Assembly: GCA_963768655.1 (NCBI GenBank)
Contig: CAVYIM010000006.1
Span: 96,001-160,000 of the forward strand
DNA length: 64,000 bases
Direction of reading: 5' to 3'
Source of the DNA: an uncultured Chloroflexia bacterium
GTDB taxonomy: Bacteria > Chloroflexota > Limnocylindria > Limnocylindrales > CSP1-4
In this document: piece after piece, positions 1 through 17,987 of the stretch
Numbering within the stretch: position 1 is the first letter of the stretch
How the letters are laid out: every line of letters starts with the position of its first letter
The notes under the pieces: model-generated
Told to the model about the DNA's origin: nothing
Databases searched by the model: none
What the model saw: the letters and a program-made list of their open reading frames with translations, nothing else
Translations under genes and position numbers: made by a program

Positions 1-77
1 CCACAACAAGCGTGGGAGGCCCCCGACGGCGGCAACGGCCAAGACGGCTCGGGCAACGTCCGAGGCGGGTTCGGGCA

Positions 78-2123: not shown

Positions 2124-2258
2124 TGCGGGTTGATGGAGAAGGCTTCCGCCTATGGAGCTATGACCATCACAGGATGACACGACACCCCGTCAGAGACTCA
2201 CAATCGCCGAGGGCGAGAGGGTGGCTGGAGTTTGCATACTCAGCACGGATAGAGGCAT

Positions 2259-3584
2259 GTGAGCACCTACGAGCGAGGTCTACGTCCACTCAGGGCCGTC
2301 TTGAGCCTTGGCTTGGTCGCAGGTGCGCTGTGGGGCTGCAGCAATCTGGCTACACCGTCGTCATCGCCGGTGGCATCGAGCACAGCTGCGCCGACGGCAA
2401 CGGCCGGGTCGCGAGTTCCGACACCCGCGCCATCCACCTCTCCCTCGCCGACACCTGTTCCGACCCTGCCGAGCGGCAACTGGACCGGGCTCCACTGGAC
2501 CCGTGTTCAGACGACCGCTGCGGTCTGGATGACGCCTGCCATCTTGGGTGGGTCTTCGAAAGGGAACGTCACCGAGTCGGGTTGGTCTGTCTTTGGCTGG
2601 GACGACGGCTACGTCGCTTTCGACGTCGTCACCACGAAGTCGAAGAACGGTTCGAAGGTCACCGTCATCGACACGGAGCACTCGACCGACGGCATTTCAT
2701 GGTCCGCTGGAGGCTCTTTCACCCCTCCCTCGTTTACCCCTGACGTGCCGGATCAGCAGTCGCCAAGCGTCGACGGTATCGAAGAAGGACCAGTTGGTCT
2801 TCTCGTATACGACGACTACGACTGCGTCTGCGCGTGTCATTTCCCGACCATCCATCCGCTCGGGGCCTCGACGGACGGCGTCACCTGGCAGACGGTCCAG
2901 GGCGTCGTGGTGGGCGATTGGCTCGACGCCGGGTCGGCCGGCTACATCGTCACCGAGGGGGACCAAGTCGAAATCTCACAAGACGGCATCTCGTGGACCA
3001 GGACCAGACTGAGCGGCAAGGCGTTCGCAACGGTCGACTCCATCGACAGTGGAGCCTCATCTGCAGGCGGCTTCGTCATCACGAGCGAAACCTACGGGCC
3101 TCCGACCCAAGGGGCCATGTGCGTCCAGTTTCCGATTCCGATGAACCCCACGGTCTGGTTCTCGGCGGACGGGAAGAACTGGGTCCGGCAGATCCTGCCA
3201 GGCGGCATCGCCAAGGGTTACGGCAGCGCGACTGTGTGTCACATCAACGCGCATATCCTCCTCGCTCAGGAATGGGACGGTTCCGAACTGGATTGGACCT
3301 CGACCGATGGAGAGGCCTGGACAAGCGCGTCGACCGGCTTCTCCTGTGAGGGCATGCCGCTCGCGGGCCACTACCTCCTCGACTCGTTTGATCCCTACGG
3401 CAACTGGACAGTCGAAGTCCTTGGGCCCGATCTGCACTACGAAGCCCTCGCCGAGACCGGCGATGAGCCGAATTGGCACGACGTCTGGGCGGACCACGGC
3501 TGGGTCGATGCCCTGGGTCCGGCGGGACTGATCGTCTCTGATGGCCAGGGCGGTCTTTGGGTCGGTGTTCCCTTCGCGGGTTGA
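2259..3584 (+). CDS. Lipoprotein with Asp-box/BNR-like (S-x-D-G-x-x-W) repeats, beta-propeller-like
   Basis: Lipobox-like ALWGC; Pro/Ser/Thr linker; repeated STDGISW, STDGVTW, SQDGISW, SADGKNW, STDGEAW. Confidence 0.7.
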   Translation: MSTYERGLRPLRAVLSLGLVAGALWGCSNLATPSSSPVASSTAAPTATAGSRVPTPAPSTSPSPTPVPTLPSGNWTGLHWTRVQTTAAVWMTPAILGGSSKGNVTESGWSVFGWDDGYVAFDVVTTKSKNGSKVTVIDTEHSTDGISWSAGGSFTPPSFTPDVPDQQSPSVDGIEEGPVGLLVYDDYDCVCACHFPTIHPLGASTDGVTWQTVQGVVVGDWLDAGSAGYIVTEGDQVEISQDGISWTRTRLSGKAFATVDSIDSGASSAGGFVITSETYGPPTQGAMCVQFPIPMNPTVWFSADGKNWVRQILPGGIAKGYGSATVCHINAHILLAQEWDGSELDWTSTDGEAWTSASTGFSCEGMPLAGHYLLDSFDPYGNWTVEVLGPDLHYEALAETGDEPNWHDVWADHGWVDALGPAGLIVSDGQGGLWVGVPFAG

Positions 3585-4342
3585 GGCGTGCAGGGCAATC
3601 GCGACGCGATTCAGGCGAACTACATCAGCCCTCCATCACACCTTGCTGCCGCGCCTGCCGTCTGGCTGTCGGGAACGGGCAAGTCCACGTCCCCAAGGTG
3701 CCCCGAAAGGGTGCCACCTCTGACTGCCAATTCCGTACTCAACTCCGGCCCGCCTGGGCGTGCACCGAAAAGGGGTCCTTGTGAGTGGGGGCGAGAAGAC
3801 TTGCGGCCGAGACAACAAGCTAGCCGGCGGAGGTCACGAGCGGCCGTCGCGAGACGAATGCCCAGCCGCTGATGGTGGTGCGCGAGACGAGGCGGGAGCT
3901 GATGGCAGAGCCGTCGCGGCCCGACCTAGTGAGTTGAGTTCAGGCACTGCCTATCAAGGGTTTGAACAGCTCGGCTGACGCGCTACTAGCTGTTCGAGCG
4001 ATCTCTTCCCAGTCAACGACGCGACTGACCGGCGGCTCACTCCCGAGAATGCGTCCTGCCTTGAGCACCCCCACTACAGAGCCTGCGGGCGGCGGTTGGC
4101 CCTGCGACCCTCCGGACGATGGGTGCAGCGTGGCCGGACCCCTTTCGCGGCATTCCAGGCTGGTTCAGGTCATCCCAATCACCCGTTCCGCTGCCTTCCA
4201 GCCTCTGTTAATCAAGAGGCTGGAAGGCAGCGTAGCATGTCGTCCTTGACCGTCCATCGTCTGACCATGTGGACCCGATCGACCACGGGCAATCGGTCAA
4301 TCTCTCGTCATCGGGGCGCGTAGCCCCTTACGCGAGGACTAG

Positions 4343-4870
4343 ATGAGGCCAACTATGCCGCAGGAGAGAGTACTCCTCGGCTCACCAGCCGAGCAGGTCC
4401 AATCCGATCTGGCGGCGACCATTGCTGCTGAGGCCCCTGTGCTACTCGCAGCTGCTCGACTGATCACGTCAAGCGAAGCCGAGGCGTGGGATGTCGTTCA
4501 GATTACGATTGAGATCGCCCTGCGCCGGAGAGGATCCCTTCGAGATCGTGGAGCTATTCGAGCCTGGCTGCTTACGATACTCACCCGTGAAGCCATGCGC
4601 TTCCGTCGGCGCGTCCGCGGGGTCATGTCAATTGAATTAGCCGAGGCACAAGCCCCCACCGTTCCGGGCCCAGGTGTCGAGCAGTTAGCGATCAGGCAGG
4701 CCTTGTCCCAGCTTCCACTCCGGACACGAACTGCTGTAGTCCTGCATCACATGGTAGGACTGTCAATAGCTGAGGTAGCCTCAGCTATGAACGTAAGTGA
4801 GAACACGGTGAAGTCTCAGATCAAGCAGGGGATATCTCGCCTGCGGGAGGCGCTTAGCGATGAATGGTGA
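4343..4870 (+). CDS. ECF-type RNA polymerase sigma-70 factor
   Basis: Region 2 (EAWDVVQ...RAWLLTI) and region 4 (LSQLPLRTRTAVVLHHMVGLSIAEVASAMNVSENTVKSQI); GAGGA RBS. Confidence 0.9.
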   Translation: MRPTMPQERVLLGSPAEQVQSDLAATIAAEAPVLLAAARLITSSEAEAWDVVQITIEIALRRRGSLRDRGAIRAWLLTILTREAMRFRRRVRGVMSIELAEAQAPTVPGPGVEQLAIRQALSQLPLRTRTAVVLHHMVGLSIAEVASAMNVSENTVKSQIKQGISRLREALSDEW

Positions 4871-5459
4871 TGTGCGCAAGCAGGCTGAAGGCAGCCTTGA
4901 TCAGACGACCCTGGACCGCATTCTGCGGTACCTTGAACTCGTGTTTCAGTACGAGTTGTCTGCAGCGAAGACAGACATGGGTGGCGCTCAATGGATTGAT
5001 GGCGTCCCAAGGCTGCCATCGACTGCTCACCATAGGCGCGACTCCTGGCGATCCCGTAGGCACCTAGGTCTTCCAACCCCGGTTCTTCAAGCGGCAACAG
5101 CCGTTGTGATAGCCGGAGTCCTTCTCGCTGGGTTTGTCGCTCCCGCCATCTTGATCCCAGGAGCGTCCAACACGACGATGCCCAGCCCTCAATCGGGCGT
5201 GGTTGGGAGTGTTGTAGTCGCCGGCGGACCAATACCAGGCGCTTCAGACGGGAACCAAGCGGCGGAACTCATCGTCTCGAACGCTACTGGGACCGTGACC
5301 ACTCGCATCGTGGATTCCGGCACGCCCGTGCGCCTCGATCTTCCGCCTGGGCAATATCAGCTATCCGGCGTCTACGGAAATGCCGGCTGTACAGGCGTCA
5401 CCGTTCAGGTCGTTGCAGGTCAGTTCACCCCATTTGCCGTCACCTGCAGCATCCGCTAG
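4860..5459 (+). CDS. Single-pass membrane protein, putative anti-sigma factor with extracytoplasmic beta-sandwich
   Basis: Overlaps the sigma stop codon; one TM helix (AVVIAGVLLAGFV); C-terminal LPPGQYQL beta domain with two Cys. Confidence 0.5.
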   Translation: MNGDVRKQAEGSLDQTTLDRILRYLELVFQYELSAAKTDMGGAQWIDGVPRLPSTAHHRRDSWRSRRHLGLPTPVLQAATAVVIAGVLLAGFVAPAILIPGASNTTMPSPQSGVVGSVVVAGGPIPGASDGNQAAELIVSNATGTVTTRIVDSGTPVRLDLPPGQYQLSGVYGNAGCTGVTVQVVAGQFTPFAVTCSIR

Positions 5460-5461
5460 AC

Positions 5462-6640
5462 CTACTGCAGGGGCAACGCTGTGACGGGCCCCAGCGTAGA
5501 GAGATCGATCGAACTGTCAGAAAGACCCCAGTCGAGCACGAATCCCGTACCGGCATCGATGACGACTGTCAGGAATGTACCGGTGGGAGACGCTTTCCCT
5601 GCGGGCATACGCGCGTTGATGCCAGTGAACTTGCCTTGAATCTGAACTAGATAGACTCCTTGGTTCGAGTTCACACCAGCCCCCGATGCGACCGTGTTTG
5701 CATCCTGGCGCGTTGAAACGACCGCGTTGGCCGTCGTCGCCGAGCTGTCACTAGCGGCGGCTGCCATACTCCCTGCTACTGCCGTGAGAGAGCTGATTGC
5801 CGAGGCAGGAACCGAGGCCGTCGTCTTGGTTATCCCGGCAGTGGCCATTGTCCTACCTTGCGTTGGTAGTATGGGTGCAGCTGAGGCGATAGGGACTGAG
5901 CCTTGGGAAGCACCGGTGTTACATGCCGAGGAGTAAACTACGGCATTGTACTTGCTTATCCAAACCGCGTTGGCCGGTGGATACATCGGGTACAAGTATG
6001 AGTCGCTGCTGCCGTACTGCCAGTTGGTGTGCAAGCTTCCCGTCGTGTCAAACCAATCGAGGGGGCTGGACTGGCCGACTATGTTGTAGGAATTGCTGGT
6101 GGTCTCTATTCCGGTCTCCATGGAAAGCGAATATGGCGGGTTGGAAGTCGAGGTCCCAACGTGTGATGTCCCCTGCCAGACCCACCAGCTATTGCTCCCT
6201 GCATATATGATCTCGGTCTCGTACGATGTGTTAAGTGATCGCGTCCCGACGTAGTGCTCGTGATATCCGCCTCCTGGTCGGTTGTCGGCCCAGAACCAGT
6301 ACGGCCCGCCTCTTGCCTGACCGTTGAGCTCGCCGTAGGACAATCCCGTCTCAACCCAGTAGCCCAGGTTGGAGGAGTTGTCCGTAGCCTCCCACATTTC
6401 CTCGTCGGCGAAATTGACCGTGTCGTTAGGCCCATTGAGACAGCTGGAGTAGATGTTGGTGTAGATGCCTTCATTCGCCGCGGAATTGACCCAAATGGCG
6501 AGGGCATAGCAGTGAGATGAGGATGAGGTTGAACACGTGTAGGCCAGCGCTGTCTGCGGGAGCGCCGCGGAAGCGCCCACCAGCGCGAGAGCAGCTAGGA
6601 GGATTTGGATCTGTCGTCCGAGCGCTCGACTCAGGTTCAT
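5462..6640 (-). CDS. Secreted hypothetical protein (signal peptide, aromatic-rich beta domain, second C-terminal domain)
   Basis: MNLSRALGRQ...LLAALALVGASAALPQTALA signal peptide; EEMW...WVETG segment is only weakly reminiscent of neprosin-like glutamic peptidases. Confidence 0.6.
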   Translation of the reverse strand: MNLSRALGRQIQILLAALALVGASAALPQTALAYTCSTSSSSHCYALAIWVNSAANEGIYTNIYSSCLNGPNDTVNFADEEMWEATDNSSNLGYWVETGLSYGELNGQARGGPYWFWADNRPGGGYHEHYVGTRSLNTSYETEIIYAGSNSWWVWQGTSHVGTSTSNPPYSLSMETGIETTSNSYNIVGQSSPLDWFDTTGSLHTNWQYGSSDSYLYPMYPPANAVWISKYNAVVYSSACNTGASQGSVPIASAAPILPTQGRTMATAGITKTTASVPASAISSLTAVAGSMAAAASDSSATTANAVVSTRQDANTVASGAGVNSNQGVYLVQIQGKFTGINARMPAGKASPTGTFLTVVIDAGTGFVLDWGLSDSSIDLSTLGPVTALPLQ

Positions 6641-6769
6641 TTGGGTTCGTCCCCCAGCGATCCTGCACGTAGGGCCCATTCGGGCGAGGGTGGATCGCTT
6701 GACAGATACCGCAGCGAAGCCGGGGACGACAATCGGAATGCTTCCGTATGCCCGGAGCAGCAAGGTTCC

Positions 6770-6985
6770 CAGAGACGCCGCCGGCAGACGAGGCTAGCCG
6801 AAACCTATCTGGCTGTGATCCGGCTGGTGCTGTCGGCGTCGGACTACGCCGAACGGACGCACCCGATGGGTACGCTGGGCGCGCCACCGGAAGCGCCACA
6901 GTTCCCTAGCGACGACGAGCAGCGCCTTTCGTCAGCCTGCGATCACATGACCAAGCGTGACGGTTACTCCACGACCGAGGCTTGA
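6770..6985 (+). pseudogene. Possible internal fragment of a hypothetical gene
   Basis: Protein-like stretch RRQTRLAETYLAVIRLVL...PQFPSDDEQR with no credible start or RBS. Confidence 0.25.
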
Positions 6986-7010
6986 CCTAGAACAAAGGTT
7001 CTCTTAGTAT
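6982..7010 (+). promoter_or_regulatory. sigma70 promoter with an embedded LexA (GAAC-N4-GTTC) box
   Basis: TTGACC 6982-6987, 17-bp spacer, TAGTAT 7005-7010; AGAAC-AAAG-GTTCT at 6989-7002 lies in the spacer. Confidence 0.7.
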
Positions 7011-7066
7011 TCCCACGTCGACTCTTCGGCCGCCTTTGCTGACGAGTAACGACGATACTCGAAGCT

Positions 7067-7924
7067 ATGACGATGGTTGAGACGAAACACAGGGCGGCCG
7101 CTGCTGCGCCCACGCCCTCGTCAGTCGCAGCGGCGCCTGCCGCTGAGGAGAAGAAGACCCGCACGCGACTGCTTCAAGAGGATGTGCCAGGTTACTCCCT
7201 GGATCAGGCATTGCGCGTCGCCAGGGCTATCGCTGAGAACTACGCTTACAAACCCACCCGCCCAATGAACGTCGCCCGAGCGATGGGTATGTCACCGACG
7301 TCGGGGCCGTTCCGGATGATCACGGGCGCTTCCGTCGCGTACGGTCTGACGGCCGGGGCCGCCCAGGCGCCTGAGATCGGGATTGCCCCGCTAGGCATGC
7401 GGATCGTTCACCCGCTCTCCGAAGGGGACGACTTAGTCGCGACGCGGGAGGCGCTCCTGAAGCCGAAGATCGTCGGCGACTTCCTCCGCGATTACGACGG
7501 GGCCGCGATCCCCGTTGACACCATCGCCAAGAACGTACTCCATCAGAAAGGCGTTCCGACCGAACGTGTTGATGACGTGCTCGATTTGATCGTGGAGGGC
7601 GGCAAGAGCGTCGGCTTCATCACTGAGTACGGCGGAAAGCGTTGGGTCGATCTGGCGGGGCCGGCGCCGACAGCCGCTCCAAACGGCTCAACTGCAGCGG
7701 AAGCATCGGGTCCAGCCGTACCCGCGTCGGTGATGCGTGCCGTCCAGACGCCGACGGCCGCGCCTGTCGCCGTATCGGTGGGGCCAGGAATTCACATCAA
7801 CATCGAGATCCATATCGCGGCGGACGCCTCCTCGGAGACCGTTGAGGAGATCTTCAAGAACATGCGCCGATACGTTCTGGGCGGTGAAGGTAAGGCCGAC
7901 GATGGCCGCGCCGAAGCGGAGTGA
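7067..7924 (+). CDS. Hypothetical protein, DUF5343-like (N-terminal wHTH-like domain, C-terminal IHINIEIHI motif)
   Basis: YSLDQALRVARAI...GASVAYGLT N-terminus and IHINIEIHIAADASSETVEEIF C-terminus, recalled from defence-island proteins. Confidence 0.5.
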   Translation: MTMVETKHRAAAAAPTPSSVAAAPAAEEKKTRTRLLQEDVPGYSLDQALRVARAIAENYAYKPTRPMNVARAMGMSPTSGPFRMITGASVAYGLTAGAAQAPEIGIAPLGMRIVHPLSEGDDLVATREALLKPKIVGDFLRDYDGAAIPVDTIAKNVLHQKGVPTERVDDVLDLIVEGGKSVGFITEYGGKRWVDLAGPAPTAAPNGSTAAEASGPAVPASVMRAVQTPTAAPVAVSVGPGIHINIEIHIAADASSETVEEIFKNMRRYVLGGEGKADDGRAEAE

Positions 7925-8480
7925 TGGCGTAGATCCGGACCTGCTCCGCCGTCTTAGGGAGTTCCAGGTACGGGTACGCCAGCCATCACGGCGGGTCGAA
8001 GCTGTCGTGCCCGCTCGAGGACCACTCTCTGGGCGCGACGCCAATGTCCTCGCCAGATTACGGAAGCACTCCGTCTCGCTCGGGGACTCGATGGAGCAAG
8101 CCCTCACGGACTTGAACGACAACGGCCGCTTGAGTTACGTAGGACCCGCGGGTGAGATCCGCGAGGTCATGCGAGCCACGGTCCAGCTCCTCGCGCCCGA
8201 CGATGAGGTCAAGAAGCAAGCGTGGTACGTCGGCGTCGAGCAGGGCGGTAAACGCAACCCCTCGCAGGCGGAGAGAACCCGGTACGCGGTTCAACACCGG
8301 GCGGGCGACGGCGATCAGATCAAAGGAGTGGAGACGCTCATCGATGAGCTGGTCGGTCAGATCAGCCGACAAACCTACACAACCGGGAGCGCGGCTTTTC
8401 ACGTCGGGACGCAGCAGGCGAAGGTTAGGAAACTCACGGGGTGGGTCTTTGCGGTGTTGGATGAGGTTCTTCCCGAATAG
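7902..8480 (+). CDS. Putative HEPN-superfamily protein (resembles the predicted pPIWI-associating nuclease family)
   Basis: QALTDL..GRLSYVGPAGEIREVMRATVQLLAPD and C-terminal SRQTYTTGSAAFH; overlaps the upstream gene. Confidence 0.5.
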   Translation: MAAPKRSDGVDPDLLRRLREFQVRVRQPSRRVEAVVPARGPLSGRDANVLARLRKHSVSLGDSMEQALTDLNDNGRLSYVGPAGEIREVMRATVQLLAPDDEVKKQAWYVGVEQGGKRNPSQAERTRYAVQHRAGDGDQIKGVETLIDELVGQISRQTYTTGSAAFHVGTQQAKVRKLTGWVFAVLDEVLPE

Positions 8481-8484
8481 CCAG

Positions 8485-8506
8485 TACGACTAATTGGCGC
8501 TTAGAC
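8485..8506. repeat. Site A, copy 1: putative recombination site GACTAA-TTGGCGC-TTAGAC abutting ssb codon 51
   Basis: Non-ssb sequence matching 15980-16001 with one mismatch; inverted CTAA/TTAG arms around a 7-bp spacer. Confidence 0.75.
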
Positions 8507-8659
8507 CCAGACGACCACGTTGTGGTATTCCGCGCGCTCTTTGCCGTTGCCGCGGAACTCGTTGGTCGCCACGGCAAATGTGGCGACGGATGACCCGCTG
8601 GCCAGCGATCGCAGCTCCGGATCGCGGGTCAGGCGGCCGGTCAGAAGGACCTTGTTCAC
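8501..8659 (-). pseudogene. ssb: ssb 5' fragment, codons 1-51 (copy 1), with ~110 bp of upstream DNA to 8769
   Basis: [51 protein letters not shown] then V-stop; near-identical to the copies starting at 10507 and 16154. Confidence 0.9.
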
Positions 8660-8825
8660 GGTCCTGGTCTCCTCTCGCGGCGCCGCTGTGTCGCGACGCC
8701 CTCTCTTGCGGCGGTACTCGAACCGTATCCCAGCCCTCTCTACCGACGCTCATCCGCGGCTTATCCGGGGCCGACGAAGCCTTCCACAGGCCGGAGCGGT
8801 TCGATCCCCCGCGGGACGCCACTCC

Positions 8826-9380
8826 TCAGTCGGGTTTGTCCGTCTGATCGGACCATATCGGCGAAGAGTCGCCAGCCAATCCGTGATGGTCCGCAACCTG
8901 ACCACGCGGGTCGGACCATCGAGCCGGCGATGAGCCCGCAGTCTGATCCGAGGGACGGCGGCGATTCTCCAAAACGAACCGATAGAACCACCTGAGCCAG
9001 AGCGCCTCGCATGCGAAGAACGCGACCGTGAAGAGCCGTAGCAACAAACCAGGGGTGTAATACGGGTTGCTGAAAGGCAGGTTCATGACTAACGCAAACC
9101 CATTTGCCACCGCGAAGAGGATGACGTTCTCCGCCCCAGCGTATAGGTGGTTGGGGTGCGGACCACCCGAGTGCCGGTTCCTCGTCAACAGCCATCCAAG
9201 CACGGTTCCTGGATGGTCGGGGTTGTTCCTCTCGGCCCAGAAACCGACTACGTGCGGCAGATAGTGCTCGTCCAGCAGGTGGAAGGACAGGGCGAACCCG
9301 ACCGAGGACCATGGAATCGTGAAGGCCCCGAACAGGAGCATGAACCCGCCGACGGGTAGGTCGTCCGAACCTACGATCAC
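8826..9380 (-). CDS. Multi-pass membrane hypothetical protein (array cargo)
   Basis: GAGGAGGAG RBS before GTG; three hydrophobic segments. Confidence 0.6.
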   Translation of the reverse strand: MIVGSDDLPVGGFMLLFGAFTIPWSSVGFALSFHLLDEHYLPHVVGFWAERNNPDHPGTVLGWLLTRNRHSGGPHPNHLYAGAENVILFAVANGFALVMNLPFSNPYYTPGLLLRLFTVAFFACEALWLRWFYRFVLENRRRPSDQTAGSSPARWSDPRGQVADHHGLAGDSSPIWSDQTDKPD

Positions 9381-9457
9381 CGCTCCTCCTCAGTGCGAAT
9401 GGCCGGTCCATGATAGTCCCGCCGGTTCTCGCAGAACCGTCCCGGTCCCCGCTCCGC

Positions 9458-9482
9458 ACACTGGCGCGTGCCGCGGTCGTCG
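9458..9482. repeat. Site B, degenerate copy (ACACTGGCGCGTGCCGCGGTCGTCG)
   Basis: Identical to 11465-11489; reverse complement is ssb coding sequence (DDRGTR). Confidence 0.85.
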
Positions 9483-9583
9483 CCGCCTGGGTCAACGTAC
9501 CTGTGGGGTATGGGGCGGTTCCAGGCACAGGGGGGCCCTTCCGGGTACTTGAAGCCGACGCGGCCGGGTCTCAAGATCCGGAT

Positions 9584-10084
9584 GTGGCACACGATCCGGC
9601 GACTCCATCCATCCCGCCCGAAGCCCGCGGTGCGCTGGTCCTCTTCGTCGATGACGAGCCCTTGCGTCGGGCCTTCGCCATGAAAGTGCTCGGACAGGCT
9701 GGGTTCGTCACGGAGACGTTAGGAGACGGCGCCCCAGCGGTCGAGCGCCGCTTCCAAGACCCCGTGCCCGCTGTCATCGTCATGAACTGGCAGATGTTCG
9801 GAATGCACGGAGACGTGCGAATGGACGGAGACGTGGCCATCAGGCTCATACGGGAGCGAGAGGCCGCCGAAGGGCTGCCGCGCATGCCCATTCTCTTCGA
9901 AAGCGGCGACATTCTGAGTTCCAAGGTCAGGTCGGCCGACGCAGACGGATTGCTGGCTATGCCCTGCAATGTCGATCAACTGGTCGAAGCCGTCCTCCAG
10001 GTGGGCTGGCCCTCGCGGGCTGAGTCGCCCTGTGAGGCGGAGGCGTCAGCCCCGTCGGAATTCCTTGGCGACAGCTCAGCCTGA
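9584..10084 (+). CDS. Stand-alone CheY-like receiver, atypical (array cargo)
   Basis: VLFVDDEP acidic pocket and receiver fold; phospho-Asp position reads N (VIVMNWQM) and the conserved KP reads MP. Start uncertain. Confidence 0.75.
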   Translation: MAHDPATPSIPPEARGALVLFVDDEPLRRAFAMKVLGQAGFVTETLGDGAPAVERRFQDPVPAVIVMNWQMFGMHGDVRMDGDVAIRLIREREAAEGLPRMPILFESGDILSSKVRSADADGLLAMPCNVDQLVEAVLQVGWPSRAESPCEAEASAPSEFLGDSSA

Positions 10085-10219
10085 CTCCTGAGGCGAGCGC
10101 CGAGCAGCAGTCTCGGAGGCGACACCTGGCCCGCCCCGTTGGTGGCCACCCGCGCGTACGTTGCCCGACGGGTGGCACGCGTTTCTGGGTACATTCGCCA
10201 TCGCTGGCGCACGACGGGA

Positions 10220-10507
10220 TTACTTGCTGATGGGTCTAACTTGACAGTGGCGCGTGCCGCGGTCGTCGTCCCACTGGCGAGTCTGCAGGCGACCCTCGAT
10301 GGCGACCTGCTGACCCTTGCCCAGATACTGGCCGCAGACCTGCGCCAGGCGGTCCCAGACGACCACGTTGTGGTATTCCGCGCGCTCTTTGCCGTTGCCG
10401 CGGAACTCGTTGGTCGCCACAGCAAATGTGGCGACGGATGACCCGCTGGCCAGCGATCGCAGCTCCGGATCGCGGGTCAGTCGGCCGGTCAGAAGGACCT
10501 TGTTCAC
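10220..10507 (-). pseudogene. ssb: ssb 5' fragment, codons 1-87 (copy 2), truncated at site B; upstream DNA shared with copy 1 to 10617
   Basis: OB-fold N-terminus to ...[18 protein letters not shown], then foreign CQVRPISK*; the last beta strand and any C-terminal tail are missing. Confidence 0.9.
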
Positions 10508-10847
10508 GGTCCTGGTCTCCTCTCGCGGCGCCGCTGTGTCGCGACGCCCTCTCTTGCGGCGGTACTCGAACCGTATCCCCGCTCTCTCTACCGGCGCTCA
10601 TCCGCGGCTTATCCGGGCGACGGCGAAACCCGACGCGGCCATTCGACCTAGCCCCTGCTCCGCTGGTCGCCGACGATGCCGGCCCCGCGCCAGCCAGTCG
10701 AGCGGCTGTGTCGGGGGCCATAGACCCCGGTGGCAAAATGTGCGCTGTGCACGGGGGGCTTGGACACGAGGCCCACACACTGGCCGCCGGGACCGCGCCG
10801 AGCTACTGGCGAGACCGACCCGCATGGTCAATCGCGGGAGGTTCCCG

Positions 10848-11213
10848 ATGCGCTTCATCGAGATCAACGGCTTCTGCATCCGGCCCGACAAGCAGACCGA
10901 GTTCCAGCAGTGGGTCATCGCCAACGAGGCGCGGCTCAAGCGTGCGTACCCGCAGGGGTCCGAGTTCGGTGGCATCTTCGGAGTGGTCTACAGCTCTGAC
11001 AAGAGCGGCGGCGGATGCTACTGGCTAGAAACTCACGACAGCTACGGGGCTATTGACCTGAGCGCCGCTGTCTCAAAGGATCCGACCAGCGAGATGGCCA
11101 ACGTGATGAAGGAGTTCGTGGCATTCCTCGATCCGGATCGGAACGCGGGCTGGAGCCACCACCTGCTCAAGTCCGTCGTTGACGCCACCGTGTTCGACAT
11201 GCCCGCGAGCTGA
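10848..11213 (+). CDS. Hypothetical protein, possibly ferredoxin-like dimeric alpha/beta barrel (array cargo)
   Basis: GGGAGG RBS; MRFIEINGFCIRPDKQTEFQQW pattern is like ABM/NIPSNAP-type proteins. Confidence 0.65.
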   Translation: MRFIEINGFCIRPDKQTEFQQWVIANEARLKRAYPQGSEFGGIFGVVYSSDKSGGGCYWLETHDSYGAIDLSAAVSKDPTSEMANVMKEFVAFLDPDRNAGWSHHLLKSVVDATVFDMPAS

Positions 11214-11457
11214 AGTCGTGCGTGTCTGAATGGTCGATTCTCTGAGGCGTGGAGGTCGGCCCTGAGTCGCGCACGCAGTGGTCGCGCCGACCAGTCCAGG
11301 CAATCCCACAGTCAGGCCGGGTGAGGATAAGCCGCGCCCGCTAAGCGGCCCTCGCTTCGCTCCTCCCGGCCCCGCTCCGCTGGTCGGCTGCGCCGTGGCA
11401 GCAAGACCGGCCACGTCGGGGGCCAGCTGGGCACGTGGGTCACTTCTAGCGGTGGTC

Positions 11458-11492
11458 AAACCTAACACTGGCGCGTGCCGCGGTCGTCGCCG
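11458..11492. repeat. Site B copy (AAACCTAACACTGGCGCGTGCCGCGGTCGTCGCCG)
   Basis: Direct repeat with 9458, 10244, 12649, 13248 and 15414. Confidence 0.9.
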
Positions 11493-11545
11493 ACGTTCCT
11501 GTCCGGCCGGTTCGAGCGGATACTTTGGAGGTTGAGCATCTCGGC

Positions 11546-12397
11546 CTAACCTCCCAGCAAACGCGGCTGCATCGGCACGGGGAACGGCCTGCTGAGCAGG
11601 TAGCCCTGCCCGAAGTCGACCTCTCGATCCTGCAGAGCCAGCAGGTCCTTGCGGTTCTCGATCCCCTCGGCGATGGTCTGGGCGCCGATTCGGCGGCTGA
11701 ACGAGACGAACGCCTCGACCAGGGCCTTCTTCGCCTCGGCGTCCTTGTTGCCGATGCCCTGGACGATCTCCTTGTCGATCTTGATGATCGAGGGCTCCAG
11801 CGCGGCGATGACGGTGAAGCTCGCGTAGCCGGCACCGGCGTTGTCGACGGCGAAACCGAAGCCCAGGTCACGAAGGGCGCGGACCTGCTTCTTCATGTGC
11901 GGGACATCGTGGATCGCCTGACGCTCGATGCACTCGATCACTATCTGATCCGGCGAGAGGCCGACTCCACGGACGCGCTCTGCCAGGGCGCTGGCCTCGA
12001 ACTGGGGCGCCAGGAGGCTCGCTGGCAGGACGTTGATGCCGAACCGCATTCGCTGTCCAGCCGAAGCCGGTTCCACGACCTGGGCAATCCGAGTCAGCGT
12101 GGCTTCGACGATGAAGGAGTCGAGATCCACCTCACGCTTGGCCGCGACGGCCGCCTCCACGACATCGGTGATGGACTGGGATCCCATGCCGTGGCTCAGG
12201 CGGAACAGGCACTCCCATTCATGCGCCTTCAGGGTCGCGAGGTCCACGATCGGCTGGAACTCCACGCGGTGCTCGTGCAAGGCGAAGAACTGCGAGAGCA
12301 AGTCGGAACCGGCCTCTTCTTGGGTCTCGCCTTGGCCGATGCGATCGCCCCCCGATGTCTGCTCCACCGCCCTGTGTGATGCCCTGAAGAAGCGCAC
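11546..12397 (-). CDS. Stand-alone EAL-domain protein (c-di-GMP phosphodiesterase family; array cargo)
   Basis: FQPIV, ECLFR, IECIE, AVDNAGAG, IKIDK, IAEGIE, GQGYLLSRP; GAGGAGG RBS. Confidence 0.9.
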   Translation of the reverse strand: MRFFRASHRAVEQTSGGDRIGQGETQEEAGSDLLSQFFALHEHRVEFQPIVDLATLKAHEWECLFRLSHGMGSQSITDVVEAAVAAKREVDLDSFIVEATLTRIAQVVEPASAGQRMRFGINVLPASLLAPQFEASALAERVRGVGLSPDQIVIECIERQAIHDVPHMKKQVRALRDLGFGFAVDNAGAGYASFTVIAALEPSIIKIDKEIVQGIGNKDAEAKKALVEAFVSFSRRIGAQTIAEGIENRKDLLALQDREVDFGQGYLLSRPFPVPMQPRLLGG

Positions 12398-12648
12398 GGT
12401 GCCTCCTCACCTACGACCCCCGCGGCGTGCACCCTCACCGGGAAGACGAGACCGGCCAATCTCAAGGGCCCGGAGGTCTCAGTTCGTGGCCGCCTCGTGC
12501 CGGTTCAGGCGTCTAGGGTACAAGATCGTCCGTGATGAGCCGACCCCGCCGGCACTGGAAGCGCCCAGTCTCGCCCCGGTCCGCTCCGCTGGTTGGCTAA
12601 GTCGTGACAGCTAGACCGGCTGCGTCGGGGGACTCCAAGCCATGGGTG

Positions 12649-12682
12649 AAACCTAACACTGGCGCGTGCCGTGGTCGTCGTC
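12649..12682. repeat. Site B copy (AAACCTAACACTGGCGCGTGCCGTGGTCGTCGTC)
   Basis: One mismatch to the 11458 copy over the first 32 bp. Confidence 0.9.
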
Positions 12683-12837
12683 TCCATGGGCTCCAGCTCG
12701 GATGGAGGCGGCAAGGAGTAACGCAGTAGCCGCTGGGGTTCTGCCTCGCGTACGGCACGGGTGGGCGGGTGCCGCGCAAGGGCAGCAGACTATCCTCTAG
12801 AGTGGATCGGGTCAGGCGAAGCAACGGAGGAACAAGT

Positions 12838-13104
12838 GTGAGCGGCGACGCGGTGATCGCAGTCGTGGCCGGGGCCTTCTTCTTCGTCCTCCAGTCTCCC
12901 ATGAGGTGGCTCCGCAACGATCCGCACGCCTTTCGGAACTCGGCAGCGGCAGCTGCTGCATTTGCCACCGCGTGGTTCGTCGCGACCGACCTTCTGCCAG
13001 GCAGCAACGCGCGGATCGTCCTGATCCTGATCCTGATCATGGCCGCGGTGCTGGCCGCGACCAGTCGCTACTGGTTGCCCCGCGTTCGGCGACTACGGAG
13101 CTGA
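12838..13104 (+). CDS. Small 3-TM membrane protein (array cargo)
   Basis: GGAGGA RBS before GTG; three hydrophobic helices. Confidence 0.6.
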   Translation: MSGDAVIAVVAGAFFFVLQSPMRWLRNDPHAFRNSAAAAAAFATAWFVATDLLPGSNARIVLILILIMAAVLAATSRYWLPRVRRLRS

Positions 13105-13247
13105 GGCGGTCGTTCTCTCGCTGCCAGTCTGTCAGCCCTCACTCGCCCGCTGCCTCAGCACCCCCACCGAGACGAAACCCGTGGCAATCCCTCAGTCTGG
13201 CCACGTGGCAAGCCGAGCGGCTGCGCGGGGCCTGACGGCGTGCGTCT

Positions 13248-13280
13248 AGCCAAACACTGGCGCGTGCCGCACTCGTCGCC
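13248..13280. repeat. Site B copy, diverged (AGCCAAACACTGGCGCGTGCCGCACTCGTCGCC)
   Basis: Shares AACACTGGCGCGTGCCGC and TCGTCG with the other copies. Confidence 0.8.
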
Positions 13281-13527
13281 CGCGATCCGGCGTGGTCCAG
13301 CAACTGCGTCGAGGCCTCGCGTTCAGCCGTTTGCAGGATGCGCGCGGGCACGGCGAGTGTCAGGTGGATGGCCGCATCGTTCGAGCGATGGAGCGTCGAG
13401 CCCGTTGAGGCGGCACCATTCGGCACTTTGAGGCTCGGCTTGGGTCCGGCACAGTACGGCCAGGATCCGACCTGGCGCGGCGACGTGCCGCTCGGACGGG
13501 GATGAAGCTTGCCAGAGGAGGCGTCCG

Positions 13528-15414
13528 GTGGCAGGTCAGGACATCGAGCCTACGTCGGCCTTCGAGACTCGTTGGACTGTCGTTCGCGTCGAGAGGGGGT
13601 TGCCCGGTGTCCGTGCGGGCGACACTCTATCGTTCGAGCGCTCGGACTCTGAGATCACCGTGCTGAAGGCCGGTGCAGGGGTAGTCACCCGGCTATCACC
13701 GCCTGCCTCATTCCAGGTGGCGAGGTCCGAGACTGACCCGGACCTCGGTGAATGGCAGGTCGTTCATGACGGCCAGCGACTTGCAGTTCTGAAGCCGCGC
13801 CCACGTCTCTCTGCACAGGTGCGAGGCCAGGCCCCCACCGGAGTGAGGAAGGATGCTGGCGCGCAGTGGGTTCGTGTGTGCCTGAACTGCCACTCGCTCA
13901 ACTACGCCTGGTCTACGTGGTGTTGGGGCTGCGGAGCTCCGTCCTCGTCGTTCGGACCCGCGTTTCAGGCTCGTGGGCACCCGACCCCACCCCCACCGGG
14001 AGCCTCCAAGACCGTCGCCCCGGGGTGGGATCTCCCGGCGAGTACGAAGCCGAACGCGCTGCGGGGGGCTGCGCGCCCCAACGAGCTGAGCACGGCCGCC
14101 GCTGCGCCTCTCTATGACCCCGAGCCCAGCCTGTTCGGTGTTGCTCCCCCCATTGTCACGCCTGCCAGCAGCGCAACGACCTGGGCCAAGTACCTCCGCG
14201 TGATCGTGGGCTTCGTGGTGCTGGCTGTTCTCGGGTTGTACCGGGTTGGGAGTAGCGCCCCTGAGCCCAGCTCCTTCCCCATAACCAGCCCCTTCCCCAT
14301 GAGCGCCATGTGGTCGTTTGGTGCCGACCATACCGCGACCCTGCTGTCCGACGGCCGCGTGCTCGTCGCCGGGGGATTGGACCAAGACGACAACACCCTC
14401 TACTCCGCCGATATCTACGACCCCGTGAGCGGCACATTCAGCCCGACCGGCTCGATGACCACGGCTCGGGACTACCACACTGCGACACTGCTGTCCGACG
14501 GTCGCGTGCTCATCACCGGGGGTTTGGACCAAGACGGCATCGCGCTCTCCACCGCCGATATCTACGACCCGACGAGCGGCACTTTCAGCCCGACCGGCTC
14601 CATGTCCACCGCGCGAACGTTCGACACCGCGACCCTGCTCCGCGATGGCCGCGTGCTCGTGGCCGGAGGTGAAGACCAGGACGGCAACCGTCTAGCCTCT
14701 GCCGAGATCTACGACCCCGTGAGCGGCACTTTCAGCCCGACCGGCTCGATGGCCACGGCTCTGGACGACCACACCGCGACGCTGCTCCGCGATGGCCGCG
14801 TGCTCATCGCCGGGGGTTTGGACCAAGACGGCGACGCGCTCTCCTCTGCCGAGATCTACGACCCGACGAGCGGCACTTTCAGCCTGACCGGCTCGATGAT
14901 CACGGCTCGGGACTGCCACACCGCGACCATGCTGTCCGACGGTCGCGTGCTCATTGCCGGAGGTTTCGACCAAGACCGCAACGCGCTCTCCTCTGCCGAG
15001 ATCTACGACCCGACGAGCGGCACTTTCAGCCCGACCGGCTCGATGGCCACGGCTCTGGACGACCACACCGCGACGCTGCTCCGCGATGGCCGCGTGCTCA
15101 TCGCCGGGGGTTTGGACCAAGACGGCGACGCGCTCTCCTCTGCCGAGATCTACGACCCGACGAGCGGCTTCTTCAGCCTGACCGGCTCGATGATCACGGC
15201 TCGGGACTGCCACGCCGCGACGCTGCTGTCCCACAGCATCGTGCTCATTACCGGGGGTTTGGACCAGGGCGGCAGCCCGCTCTCCTCTGCCGAGACCTAC
15301 GACCCGATTCCCGGCATGTTCAGCGCGACCGGCTCGATGACCTTCACTTACCACAGACACACTGCCACGGCGCTCTCCACGACTGCGTCAGGGGGCCCGT
15401 TGGGGCTGGGATGA
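13528..15414 (+). CDS. Membrane-anchored Kelch-repeat protein with N-terminal RanBP2-type zinc finger (array cargo)
   Basis: CLNC-HSL-N-YAWSTW-CWGC; TM helix; seven 49-aa HTATLLxDGRVLxxGG repeats; GAGGAGG RBS. Confidence 0.85.
   Translation: MAGQDIEPTSAFETRWTVVRVERGLPGVRAGDTLSFERSDSEITVLKAGAGVVTRLSPPASFQVARSETDPDLGEWQVVHDGQRLAVLKPRPRLSAQVRGQAPTGVRKDAGAQWVRVCLNCHSLNYAWSTWCWGCGAPSSSFGPAFQARGHPTPPPPGASKTVAPGWDLPASTKPNALRGAARPNELSTAAAAPLYDPEPSLFGVAPPIVTPASSATTWAKYLRVIVGFVVLAVLGLYRVGSSAPEPSSFPITSPFPMSAMWSFGADHTATLLSDGRVLVAGGLDQDDNTLYSADIYDPVSGTFSPTGSMTTARDYHTATLLSDGRVLITGGLDQDGIALSTADIYDPTSGTFSPTGSMSTARTFDTATLLRDGRVLVAGGEDQDGNRLASAEIYDPVSGTFSPTGSMATALDDHTATLLRDGRVLIAGGLDQDGDALSSAEIYDPTSGTFSLTGSMITARDCHTATMLSDGRVLIAGGFDQDRNALSSAEIYDPTSGTFSPTGSMATALDDHTATLLRDGRVLIAGGLDQDGDALSSAEIYDPTSGFFSLTGSMITARDCHAATLLSHSIVLITGGLDQGGSPLSSAETYDPIPGMFSATGSMTFTYHRHTATALSTTASGGPLGLG
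14329..15357 (+). repeat. Seven tandem 147-bp Kelch-coding repeats
   Basis: Fixed 147-bp period; units 4 and 6 are nearly identical in DNA. Confidence 0.9.
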
Positions 15415-15550
15415 ACCTAACACTGGCGCGTACCGCGGTCGTCGTCCCACTGGCGAGTCTGCAGGCGACCCTCGATGGCGACCTGCTGACCCTTGCCCAG
15501 ATACTGGCCGCAGACCTGCGCCAGGCGGTCCCAGGTGCCACGTTGTGGTA
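15414..15550 (-). pseudogene. ssb: ssb internal fragment (codons ~45-87) bounded by a site A duplication and site B
   Basis: [41 protein letters not shown] followed by GTTAGGT. Confidence 0.9.
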
Positions 15551-15668
15551 CCCGCCCGGAGCGCTGGTGACAGAAAGACATATGCTCCGGCCGAGGCGCC
15601 AGCGCTAGACTCTGGTCAGAGAGCGGCCCCTCCCAAGGCTCGCTCCGCGACGAAAGGGGTTCGATCCG

Positions 15669-15863
15669 ATGGCAGGTAAGTTCGTGCTGTCCAAGGCCAA
15701 GAACGGCAAGTTCCACTTCTCGCTCAAGGCTGGGAACGGCGATATCATCGCCACGTCCCAGATGTACGACAGCAAGGCCGGTGCCCTCAACGGCATCGAG
15801 TCTGTCAAGAAGAACGCGTCGGGGGCTACGGTCGACGATCAGAGCGACAAGCCTGCCGAGTAA
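15669..15863 (+). CDS. YegP/DUF1508 family protein (array cargo)
   Basis: [48 protein letters not shown]. Confidence 0.9.
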
Positions 15864-15979
15864 GCCCCGAGGCCCCGACCGCAGCCAGTCACCATCCCGT
15901 AGTCCTCTCTCGCGTCCTGCAGGCCCTCGCTGTGTTCGGCGGGGGCCTCTCTTATCCCACCCACCCGAGTGTGGCGAAA

Positions 15980-16001
15980 TACGACTAAGTGGCGCTTAGA
16001 C
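15980..16001. repeat. Site A, copy 2: GACTAA-GTGGCGC-TTAGAC abutting ssb codon 51
   Basis: Matches 8485-8506 with one mismatch. Confidence 0.75.
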
Positions 16002-16154
16002 CCAGACGACCACGTTGTGGTATTCCGCGCGCTCTTTGCCGTTGCCGCGGAACTCGTTGGTCGCCACAGCAAATGTGGCGACGGATGACCCGCTGGCCAG
16101 CGATCGCAGCTCCGGATCGCGGGTCAGTCGGCCGGTCAGAAGGACCTTGTTCAC
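15996..16154 (-). pseudogene. ssb: ssb 5' fragment, codons 1-51; probably the original chromosomal 5' end
   Basis: Same truncation as 8501-8659; its upstream DNA diverges from the other two copies after 16209; it borders non-array DNA. Confidence 0.9.
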
Positions 16155-16360
16155 GGTCCTGGTCTCCTCTCGCGGCGCCGCTGTGTCGCGACGCCCTCTC
16201 TTGCGGCGGGTGAGAGAACGGCATCGAATGGGCATTCATCCCGGCTTACCGGCGGCTCATCCGAATGCGCTCTGGCCGCCTTTGACGCGATATGCTGGAC
16301 CCGGAACGGAGTTGCCCGGGAGCGATGACCGGACCGGGCCGAGGGAAGGAGAGGGTGTCG

Positions 16361-17987
16361 ATGTCGACTTCGCACCGGCTGGCGACGGGTCGTCGACCTG
16401 CCGTGCTGGGCCGCATCGGACGAGTTGGGGCCGCCGTCTTGCTGGGAACGGGTTTCGTGGCCTCGGCCTGGGCCGGGCCGCTGGCCGGGCCCCTCGCCGC
16501 GGCGCCGGTCGGGGGCCGGGTCGTGGCCTGGGGCTACGACCACTCCGACCAGACCGACGTCCCGGATTCCGCCCAGGCGGGCGTGATCATGGTCGCGGGG
16601 GGCTGCAACCACAGCCTCGCCCTCAAGTCGAACGGAAGCGTGATCGCCTGGGGTGACGACACGTACCACCAGACCGATGTCCCTGCGGCAGCCCAATCGG
16701 GAGTCATCGCCATCTCGGCCGGGTGCAACCACAGCCTGGCCCTGCGATCGAACGGCCAGATCGTGGCCTGGGGCGACAACTAGTACGGCCAGTTGAACGT
16801 GCCTTCTCTGCCCGCCGGTCGGAGGTGGATCGCGATCGGCGCCGGCGAGCGACATAGCACGGGCGTGGCCAACGGCGGTGTAGCCAACCAGGTCTATGCC
16901 TGGGGCGACGACACGTATCTCCAGACGGAAGCCCCGATCTCCGTATACAAAGGGCAGTCGATCACGCTCCCGAACAGCCATGACGTCGACGCGGGCGAGT
17001 ACGACAGCATCGCCCTGAACAAGAACGGAACCGTGGCGGTCTGGGGTGGCCCGCCCGCAAGCCTCGGAGCCGTCCCGGCAGGGCTCTCACACGTGATCGC
17101 CATCGCCATCGGCCGGGAACACGCTCTGGTGCTCGAGTCGAACGGCACGGTCGTGACCTGGGGCGAGAACGACTACTCCCAGCTGGACGTTCCGTCCGGC
17201 CTTTTGGGGGTCAAGGCGATCGCGGCGGGTGGCTATCACAGCCTGGCGCTGAAGTCGAACGGCCAGATCGTGGCCTGGGGTCGCGACGACTTCGGCCAGA
17301 CGGACGTGCCGGCTCTTCCACCCGGGTCGCGCTACTCGGCGATCGCCGCCGGGGCGCTCCACAGCCTGGCCATCGTCCCGCCGAAATCCGCCCGGCGCTC
17401 CGACGGGCGTGGCGGCCTCGGCCTGGGATGGCTCCGCCGCCGTCTCGTGGGCGGCTCCCGGGAGCGACGGGGGCGGCCCAATTTCGGGCTACACCGTCAC
17501 ATCGGCGCCGGGCGGCAAGACCTGCGCGACCACCGGCGCGTTGAGCTGCACTCTCGGCGGGCTCACCGACGGGACGTCGTACACGTTCACGGTCAGGGCC
17601 AGGAACGGGGCCGGGTTCGGAGCTACCTCGGCGAAATCGAACGCCGTGACGCCTATCGCTGGAACCACGCCGGAACCGAGCGCGAAGCCGACGCCGGCCG
17701 TCACGGCCGCACCGCCCGTCCCCACGCCCGTCCCTACCAGCAGCCCCTCGACCGGCCATCCCACCGCGAGCCCGACCGCCTCGCTCGCGGGCGCGGTCGC
17801 GGGCTCGAGATCGAGCGGAGGCGGCGGGTTGCTGTTGGTTCTAATGGCGGTGATCGCCGCGCTGGCCATCTGCCTGGCGGGCCTGGTCGGATACCAGATC
17901 GCCAGCATGAGGCGGGCGCCGGCGTTCGTCGGGGAACCGCCGGAGACTGACGAGACGGCGACGGACAGCGGTCGGCAGCCTTCGTGA
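16361..17987 (+). pseudogene. RCC1/BLIP-II repeat + fibronectin type III surface protein, interrupted
   Basis: GxxHSLALKSNG.V.AWG repeats, fn3 and C-terminal TM; in-frame TAG at 16781-16783 and a frameshift near 17385. Confidence 0.75.

Follow-up and report, generated by a model that had tools for sequence, protein, structure and literature searches.

Cassette capture is known almost only from integrons, which rely on tyrosine recombinases and folded attC sites, and tandem elements of large serine recombinases (LSRs) are known mainly from the staphylococcal and enterococcal cassette chromosomes. The units of the staphylococcal cassette chromosome (SCC) are multi-gene elements. LSR elements that split a gene include SPbeta in spsM and skin in sigK, and phage 21 and e14 bring a replacement end of their target gene, icd; to our knowledge, elements of the SPbeta and skin type are single large elements for which no arrays of minimal cassettes have been described. 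Composite SCC islands, as one account describes them, consist of tandem LSR cassettes, including recombinase-less units, bounded by repeats of the attachment (att) site (PMC13739063), and in two accounts the unit furthest from the retained end of the gene is read as the oldest (PMC13739063; PMC6222049). Accretion of cis-mobilizable elements (CIMEs) and integrative mobilizable elements (IMEs) places non-autonomous units that keep their att sites in tandem with a recombinase-encoding element, and growth proceeds by integration into the resident att site, according to a further account (PMC5704250). The locus described here lies in a stretch of 64,000 nt (the window; positions 96,001 to 160,000 of contig CAVYIM010000006.1, assembly GCA_963768655.1, from an uncultured bacterium of the Limnocylindrales), in which a gene for a single-stranded DNA-binding protein (ssb) is broken into pieces by an array of small single-gene units.

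We give a slight preference to the reading that this locus is an LSR-driven array of one-gene cassettes that land in a dispensable second ssb of this Candidatus Limnocylindrales genus. The anatomy of the array, the link of an LSR to its junctions and recurrence in other genomes are reported here. Plain coordinates are window positions and those marked C6: are contig coordinates; the genome itself (3.37 Mb) is designated G000. Motif and LSR scans covered 51 genomes of the genus, and the ssb paralogue was searched for in 24 sister genomes.

The split ssb paralogue and the serine recombinase

Eight pieces of ssb, two break points and seven intervals holding one gene apiece were located by repeat search, blastn and Pfam where the original prediction had placed them, and its description of tandem small single-gene units bounded by a repeated site inside a protein-coding gene holds. 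The pieces were recovered by direct-repeat search together with blastn against the whole genome. Translation places the breaks at codon 51/52 (site A) and codon 87 (site B); two copies end at codon 51, and the long copy and an internal piece end at codon 87. The three 5' regions, all of which include about 110 nt of upstream DNA (8506-8769, 10354-10617 and 16001-16264), align with 98% and 84% identity in the direct-repeat search, the third copy is 100% identical over 209 nt in blastn, and Pfam identifies an SSB domain at 10220-10507 (E 2.6e-31). Copies a and b have a common upstream sequence, unlike that of the resident copy and closer to that of other genomes, and on this comparison both are probably imports. 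The genome has one other SSB, 42% identical, encoded between the ribosomal S6 and S18 genes; as the housekeeping ssb is the one in this S6-SSB-S18 operon, the split ssb is a second paralogue.

A 47-nt repeat is present in six copies, all on the minus strand (9445, 10231, 11452, 12643, 13241 and 15407). The 21-nt motif GGCACGCGCCASTGTYARGTT has five matches in the window with up to two mismatches and none in 100 shuffles, and the 30-mer, with up to seven mismatches, is found genome-wide only at the six array sites and at C7:81962. A motif scattered over the genome had been named as a sign against the original prediction; the site motif is not so scattered. For repeat 1 (9452-9481) the predicted ssb-like arm and core are present, and the claim fails for the right arm. 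The C7 copy, together with two small open reading frames (ORFs), lies between two inverted identical copies of an IS256-like transposase of 441 aa (G000:C7:79301-83604; L001 7302-11605), an element with at least 12 near-identical copies in the genome.

Leftward extension, which had been proposed as a check, finds both the 3' half of ssb and a serine recombinase on the same contig. The 3' half (71 codons, C6:92836-93048) lies 11.4 kb left of the array and about 3 kb beyond the window edge, and is broken at the identical core (C6:93047-93057, an attR-type junction) 38 nt from the ATG of an LSR gene. This gene (C6:93096-94323) is divergent from the ssb 3' half and encodes a Resolvase domain (PF00239, E 6.7e-26). 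In total, 18.4 kb of DNA separates the two ssb halves. Relatives of the LSR are 398-440 aa long and retain the catalytic serine and a Cys3-His zinc ribbon, with S10, R8, C241, C244, C263 and H271 invariant in 11 relatives. An intact orthologue, 77% identical, matches Zn_ribbon_recom (PF13408) with 25.5 bits against a cut-off of 25.3, and its AlphaFold2 model (pLDDT 81.9, pTM 0.39) gives full-length Foldseek matches to the Bxb1 (E 3.9e-14) and phiC31 integrases. The recombinase at the ssb 3' half is a compact LSR of about 400 aa.

At the LSR-side junction the order is element arm GTGGGAGTATCTTACCATCAC, core GGCACGCGCCA and ssb CTGGAAGACC..., and in the array repeats it is ssb-like arm GACGACGACCGC, core and element arm GTGTTAGGTTnnACCCA or CTGTCAAGTTAnnCCCA. 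Among 30 repeats away from ssb, the conserved span comprises only 12 nt on the left, the 11-nt core GGCACGCGCCA and 17 nt on the right, which is the size of a recombinase site and not that of a decaying gene fragment. Sites of LSRs measure about 40-50 bp in a published account (PMC12286644). When the right arm of the repeat is reverse-complemented, it and the LSR-side arm form imperfect inverted repeats (TGGG...CAC), the anatomy of an attP-type site. In the ssb arm, a TGGG box stands closer to the core, by 5 nt, than it does in the LSR-side arm, an offset that we take to be the feature separating attB from attP half-sites of serine integrases. With its short ssb-like arm and long element arm, the array repeat would be, in LSR terms, an attL-type site.

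The same relation is encountered at site A: the LSR arm of G001 and G021 includes AGTACGACTAA, which the two arms have in common, and pairs as an inverted repeat with the arm TCTAAGCGCCAMTTAGTCGTA that is present at each of the two site-A junctions in this genome. The LSRs of G001 and G021 abut ssb codon 51 and are 43-54% identical over aligned parts. At its right end, the 445-bp DUF1508 cassette has its own ssb-like arm (TACCACAACGTGGCACC then TGGG), a variant common to a cassette of G005. In G019:C11, the 77%-identical LSR has an identical LSR-side arm but sits in a different target; two repeats with a variant right arm stand at the far side of this LSR element, and the arm type of site-B repeat 2 also adjoins it.

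Recurrence in the genus and cargo of the units

The ssb paralogue is present in all 24 sister genomes, as a contiguous 1-86 match of 90-99% identity in 19 of them and in pieces only in five (G001, G003, G005, G011 and G016). LSR relatives are distributed amongst 11 of the 51 genomes at 13 loci, four of which have the start of the LSR gene abutting ssb: at codon 87 in the genome studied here, 51 in G001, 45 in G016 and about 59 in G041. To judge from these junctions, one conserved gene serves as a landing pad at four positions for at least four LSR lineages. With up to three mismatches, the site-B motif has 71 matches in 31 of the 51 genomes, compared with 13 for a reversed control; with up to two mismatches there are 42 matches in 17 genomes. 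Same-strand arrays with a spacing of 0.45-1.5 kb are found in at least eight other contigs: G042:C75, G019:C11, G019:C28, G006:C39, G001:C9, G064:C5, G014:C132 and G011:C148. Arrays lie at the ssb locus in G012:C2, G019:C28 and G005:C35, and elsewhere in G064:C5 and on C7 of the present genome. The comparison of relatives that had been suggested thus yields matching junctions with different contents.

The simplest case is G042:C112, in which ssb is intact except for a single 1.42-kb cassette, with one ORF and no recombinase, inserted precisely at the core. A copy of the site flanks this cassette on either side, the right-hand one with an ssb-like arm that belongs to the cassette itself. At the left end, the last 60 nt before the core are near-identical in a G005 cassette that has a different right neighbour. 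Two other genomes have units beside ssb that are 82% identical to a G042 cassette. All 16 of the relatives' cassettes that were looked at have a single dominant ORF and unrelated cargo. Ten were scanned with Pfam: five gave a confident match (Kelch, SnoaL-like, Imm5-like, GYD and DUF4082), and the remainder encode mostly signal-peptide proteins without a match. Beyond these sets, an LSR-based scan of wider genome contigs returned 161 pattern matches, none of them confirmed, and a scan of wider contigs with the N-terminal part of ssb returned 80 loci, with 44 attB-type and 2 element-type junctions.

The ssb locus shows further variation. A 5' fragment in G001:C9 (L023 10010-10264), 73% identical to the gene of the genus, ends in a variant repeat on another contig, and it appears from this divergence to be an import from a more distant donor. 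Seven sister genomes (L015, L016, L017, L020, L022, L024 and L028) have 7.6-8.3 kb between the ssb stop codon and the NAD-synthase/methyltransferase flank; the two are adjacent in the present genome (C6:92600-92835) and in G004, which makes this a second variable segment at the locus. Upstream of ssb, the RCC1-repeat gene at 16292-17950 contains an in-frame TAG at 16781-16783, where sister repeats have a sense codon.

In the array itself, seven intervals of 445-2136 bp each contain one plausible gene, in both orientations, according to the ORF list and Pfam (Table 1). A Pfam scan of the array proteins finds no recombinase inside the array, in agreement with the original prediction. The listed ORF of the receiver (REC) protein has a start that overlaps site-B repeat 1, and the true start is probably further downstream.

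Table 1. Positions in the window of the ssb pieces, site repeats, cargo genes and riboswitch of the array and of the adjoining LSR element.
Feature	Coordinates	Strand	Remarks
Right-hand body of LSR-bearing element	1..8482		extends about 2.9 kb further, past the left window edge, as far as the LSR gene
Site-A element-type arm TCTAAGCGCCAATTAGTCGTA	8485..8505	-	joined to ssb codon 51 of copy a
ssb 5' copy a	8501..8769	-	about 110 nt of upstream DNA and codons 1-51; ends at site A; 8506-8769 in repeat search
184-aa membrane protein	8826..9380	-	no Pfam match
REC domain protein	9410..10084	+	PF00072, 31.2 bits
Site-B repeat 1	9452..9481	-	ssb-like arm and core kept, right arm degenerate
Site-B repeat 2	10238..10267	-	codon 87 of copy b joined to variant element arm CTGTCAAGTTAGACCCA
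ssb 5' copy b	10244..10617	-	upstream DNA and codons 1-87; site A intact, broken at site B
Cyclic di-GMP (c-di-GMP)-II riboswitch aptamer	10745..10827	+	RF03169, 63.8 bits, E 3.4e-11; leads the 128-aa hypothetical gene
128-aa hypothetical protein	10827..11213	+	
Site-B repeat 3	11459..11488	-	consensus
EAL-domain protein	11546..12397	-	PF00563, E 4.2e-44
Site-B repeat 4	12650..12679	-	
111-aa putative membrane protein	12769..13104	+	
Site-B repeat 5	13248..13277	-	2 mismatches in the 21-mer
Kelch-repeat protein	13528..15414	+	six 147-nt repeats; stop codon abuts the next site repeat
Site-B repeat 6	15414..15443	-	resident ssb codon 87 joined to element-type arm
Resident ssb codons 52-87	15424..15550	-	blastn 96.9% over 128 nt
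Cassette-borne ssb-like site-A arm, TACCACAACGTGGCACC then TGGG	15530-15550	-	precedes resident codons 52-87
DUF1508 (YegP-like) protein	15669..15863	+	PF07411, E 7.1e-25; cargo of the 445-bp site-A cassette
Site-A element-type arm, copy c	15980..16000	-	
Resident ssb 5' part (copy c)	15996..16264	-	codons 1-51 and own upstream region; runs into the conserved RCC1-repeat flank

The unit that contains the riboswitch and the hypothetical gene is 93% identical over 775 nt to a unit in the G005:C35 array, at the same locus. Aptamers of the c-di-GMP-II class (RF03169/RF03170) number 11 in 11 array loci (137.6 kb), six of which are no more than about 150 nt from a repeat core, on the side of the cassette that has the ssb-like arm; the whole genome contains at least three (150 of 5020 candidates scored). 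Riboswitch-led cassettes are also present in loci L023, L033, L035, L036, L037 and L042, and the neighbouring cassette here encodes an EAL phosphodiesterase. For the riboswitch-gene units clustered beside ssb in G005:C35 (L042), the closest counterparts in the present genome are at three separate chromosomal places (C4:318475 and C3:684355 were compared).

Many element-type arms are followed by an imperfect hairpin module of about 56-75 nt with GGCCCC...GGGGCC ends (in the window, 11368-11423, 12574-12631 and 10651-10725), the 3' half of which resembles the ssb-like arm and core, and which is abutted by two LSR genes (G019:C10 and G011:C130). Possible roles of the module are those of a terminator, an accessory site or a further att site. 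Its identification as a genome-wide repetitive extragenic palindrome was rejected, as only three or four good copies are found in the genome, two of them in the array. Given their own riboswitch leaders and hairpin modules, many cassettes would be self-contained expression units, unlike the promoterless cassettes of integrons.

The LSR element carries cargo of its own, including a 703-aa protein with helix-turn-helix and P-loop domains, an extracytoplasmic function (ECF) sigma factor and a gene with a pPIWI-associated nuclease domain. The GC content over the island is 0.60-0.68, lowest (0.60-0.64) in the LSR-element part (1-kb windows 2001-10000), and that of the contigs is 0.67-0.69. The ECF sigma factor and its likely anti-sigma partner are located at 4343-5459, and secreted proteins of unknown family (2259-3584 and 5462-6763) adjoin this pair. 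The nuclease-domain gene (7737-8480; PF18165, E 7.1e-11) overlaps a 285-aa ORF without family (7067-7924), and no Argonaute is seen close by. PADLOC, applied to the island proteins, returned only weak matches (Aga_Nuclease, 7.1e-07; Csa3, 7.8e-04).

Proposed history and alternative explanations

We infer that the cassettes move as circles, that an LSR moves them in trans, and that events took the order given here. Each cassette would carry one site of about 40 bp, in which the core GGCACGCGCCA stands between a short B-type arm resembling ssb and a long P'-type arm of element type. If a circular cassette recombined with the ssb site at this core, a copy of the site would end up on either side of the cassette, and the ssb 3' side would again present an attB-like target. 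Cassettes could then pile up in tandem, the most recent one closest to the 3' half, as in SCC composite islands. In the first step, the resident gene would have been split at codon 51 by the 445-bp DUF1508 cassette. The Kelch, transmembrane-protein and EAL cassettes would then have entered at codon 87. Third, the riboswitch cassette would have brought its own promoter and codons 1-87 (copy b), restoring a whole gene. Finally, the LSR element, of at least 13 kb, would have entered the restored gene, with an attR-type junction that blocks further stacking; a last insertion of this kind fits the variant right arm at 10238. The additional ssb 5' copies with foreign upstream sequence are explained if an ssb promoter and 5' coding part arrived with two of the cassettes or elements. 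A broader proposal, which we put forward tentatively and with some doubt, is that the locus is the serine-recombinase counterpart of an integron, in which minimal one-gene cassettes, each with a 40-bp site of attL type and many with a c-di-GMP riboswitch leader and a terminator-like hairpin of their own, are captured, stacked and reshuffled at defined codons of a sacrificial ssb by LSRs acting in trans, with at least two parallel systems of site and recombinase (codons 51 and 87). This proposal needs an LSR reaction between attL-type and attB-type sites, which the canonical rules of directionality forbid.

Several observations weigh against an LSR-driven array. The local LSR gene is frameshifted, changing from frame 2 to frame 3 near residue 291 in comparison with relatives of 398-407 aa; the frame change may stem from decay or from an indel in the assembly. 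With canonical LSRs, attL stays inert unless a directionality factor is present, and the reaction of cassette with attB would therefore be non-canonical; the title of one PDB entry among the structural matches reads 'Autoinhibited PhiC31 integrase-attL complex'. An identical core of 11 nt exceeds what serine recombinases require. Copy a, which lies in the LSR element, has a site-A junction and lacks codons 52-87, an arrangement that simple stacking fails to explain, and the G005 counterpart of the riboswitch unit has no flanking site. LSRs at least 58% identical to the local one are found in only five of the 51 genomes (G000, G019, G065, G061 and G011), compared with 17 for the motif at up to two mismatches, and G065 has the LSR and no motif. 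No circular or excised form of a cassette was seen. One sequencing run, the only one with 6% of the sampled words, contains short contigs identical to parts of the island (88% likeness setting), and one of its contigs joins L139 347 to 18725, leaving ssb unbroken across site B, with three differences close by and one side of 36 nt. This contig most likely represents another strain and is not evidence of excision, and the island parts left uncovered carry no meaning.

Some of these points would suit a fossil accretion, which we regard as unlikely: full LSR elements would have integrated repeatedly and decayed as in CIMEs, the array being shaped further by deletions and by homologous recombination between ssb copies, and the small units would be scars that were never mobile cassettes. 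The frameshift of the local LSR, the lack of a close LSR in most motif-bearing genomes and the unexplained position of copy a are consistent with this, homologous recombination has substrates in the ssb 5' copies (264-378 nt, 98-100% identical), and decay followed by accretion is the published route to such tandems (PMC5704250). However, tblastn detects no remnants of LSR genes in any array, and the internal junctions have ssb-like left arms instead of the LSR-side P arm expected from tandem accretion between attP and attR-type sites. Scars would also fit poorly with conservation that ends sharply 12 nt and 17 nt from the core at 30 sites, with the lone 1.4-kb cassette and its clean junctions in the otherwise intact ssb of G042:C112, and with the matching architecture at a second site, codon 51, which goes with a different LSR lineage.

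That a tyrosine recombinase acts on the repeats, the LSR element merely using the same target, is highly unlikely. The partner sites all share an identical imperfect palindrome of at least 11 nt, which would suit enzymes that need overlap homology, and relatives of such an enzyme are found within 10 kb of repeats on C7 of the present genome and in G019:C11. A tyrosine recombinase gene in G044:C103, 87% identical to the one at C7:39k of the present genome, starts about 250 nt from a repeat, and this too counts against the LSR as the enzyme. But no tyrosine recombinase occurs within 70 kb of the array, the one in G019:C11 is outside the LSR element, on the target side, and pairing with the motif is seen in only three of 39 loci searched. 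Moreover, the arm lengths and the inverted-repeat relation connect the right arm of the repeat with that on the LSR side.

A strain-chimeric or repeat-induced misassembly has very little probability. The assembly is of metagenome type and contains near-identical repeats (98-100% over 200-260 nt), and many motif matches in the sister genomes lie at contig ends. Like junction types are, however, found inside long independent contigs (G001:C8, 1.16 Mb; G016:C10, 0.97 Mb; G064:C5, 1.36 Mb), the junctions are exact at the core, and the element arms vary between copies.

A true integron or cluster of attC sites lacking an integrase (CALIN), with attC-bounded cassettes handled by IntI, would account for one-gene units separated by a repeated site and for a GTTAGGT that fits GTTRRRY, but can be dismissed, as the nearest of the 10 PF00589 matches in the genome (C6:182422) is about 70 kb from the array, six 146-nt site stretches fold no better than shuffles (z -0.39 to +1.20), Rfam at permissive thresholds over 7500-17000 returns only the c-di-GMP-II riboswitch, with no match at the repeats, the 40-nt site is asymmetric and does not form a hairpin, and several cassettes have their own riboswitch leader. 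The original prediction had itself proposed a system without attC hairpins, and this stands; its framing in terms of integrons and tyrosine recombinases does not, the enzyme tied to the junctions being an LSR and the nearest Phage_integrase match that distant one. The GTTRRRY that it took for an integron core is read as coincidence, GTTAGGT lying in the element-type arm of a site of serine-recombinase type.

Comparison with described systems

The locus suggests that an uncultured Chloroflexota lineage of soil and peat uses a serine recombinase and a short double-stranded site within a spare gene to assemble single, self-regulated genes into arrays. If the cassettes are mobile, cassette platforms would reach a second recombinase superfamily, LSR biochemistry would gain a natural case of recombination with attL-type sites, and compact LSRs of about 400 aa with defined 40-bp sites would become possible tools. 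Even if the array is a fossil, it presents a conserved gene as a landing pad at four positions for four LSR lineages. A literature search in a limited collection, without supplements, found no description of such a serine-recombinase cassette system. The original prediction's statement that no described system is alike was nevertheless too strong, since SCC composite islands and CIME accretion are analogues.

SCC and SCCmec, together with the enterococcal cassette chromosome, share with this locus LSR insertion at one conserved gene, an att core at every unit boundary, tandem arrays and recombinase-less units. The SCC target is the 3' end of rlmH and is not disrupted, whereas the ssb paralogue is split here inside its coding region, at codons 87 and 51. 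SCC units hold multiple genes, and those described here measure 0.45-2.1 kb and hold one. The cassette site here, unlike that of SCC, has a target-like left arm, and different LSR lineages use at least two independent sites of one gene. SCC recombinases are of the Ccr clade; the one here is a compact LSR of about 400 aa.

CIME accretion, as in the ICESt1 family, likewise has non-autonomous att-bearing units in tandem with a recombinase element. CIME cases mostly involve tyrosine recombinases, 3' ends of genes and decayed multi-gene islands; here the units are minimal and uniform, and are tied to a serine recombinase. With SPbeta and skin, and with phage 21 and e14, the locus shares a defined site internal to a gene and a substitute gene end, represented here by the promoter and codons 1-87 of copy b. 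Integrons and CALINs share single-gene cassettes with one recombination site each, a fixed platform and diverse cargo. In contrast to them, there is here no IntI, no attI and no folded attC, the platform is a protein-coding gene, and cassettes may come with a leader or riboswitch of their own and occur in either orientation. In our analysis, the locus seems to work most like SCC composite islands and CIME accretion, with a likeness to integrons in outline only. It appears to differ from all three, on the sequences compared, in an intragenic target with multiple positions, several LSR lineages, one-gene units, a target-like arm and riboswitch leaders.

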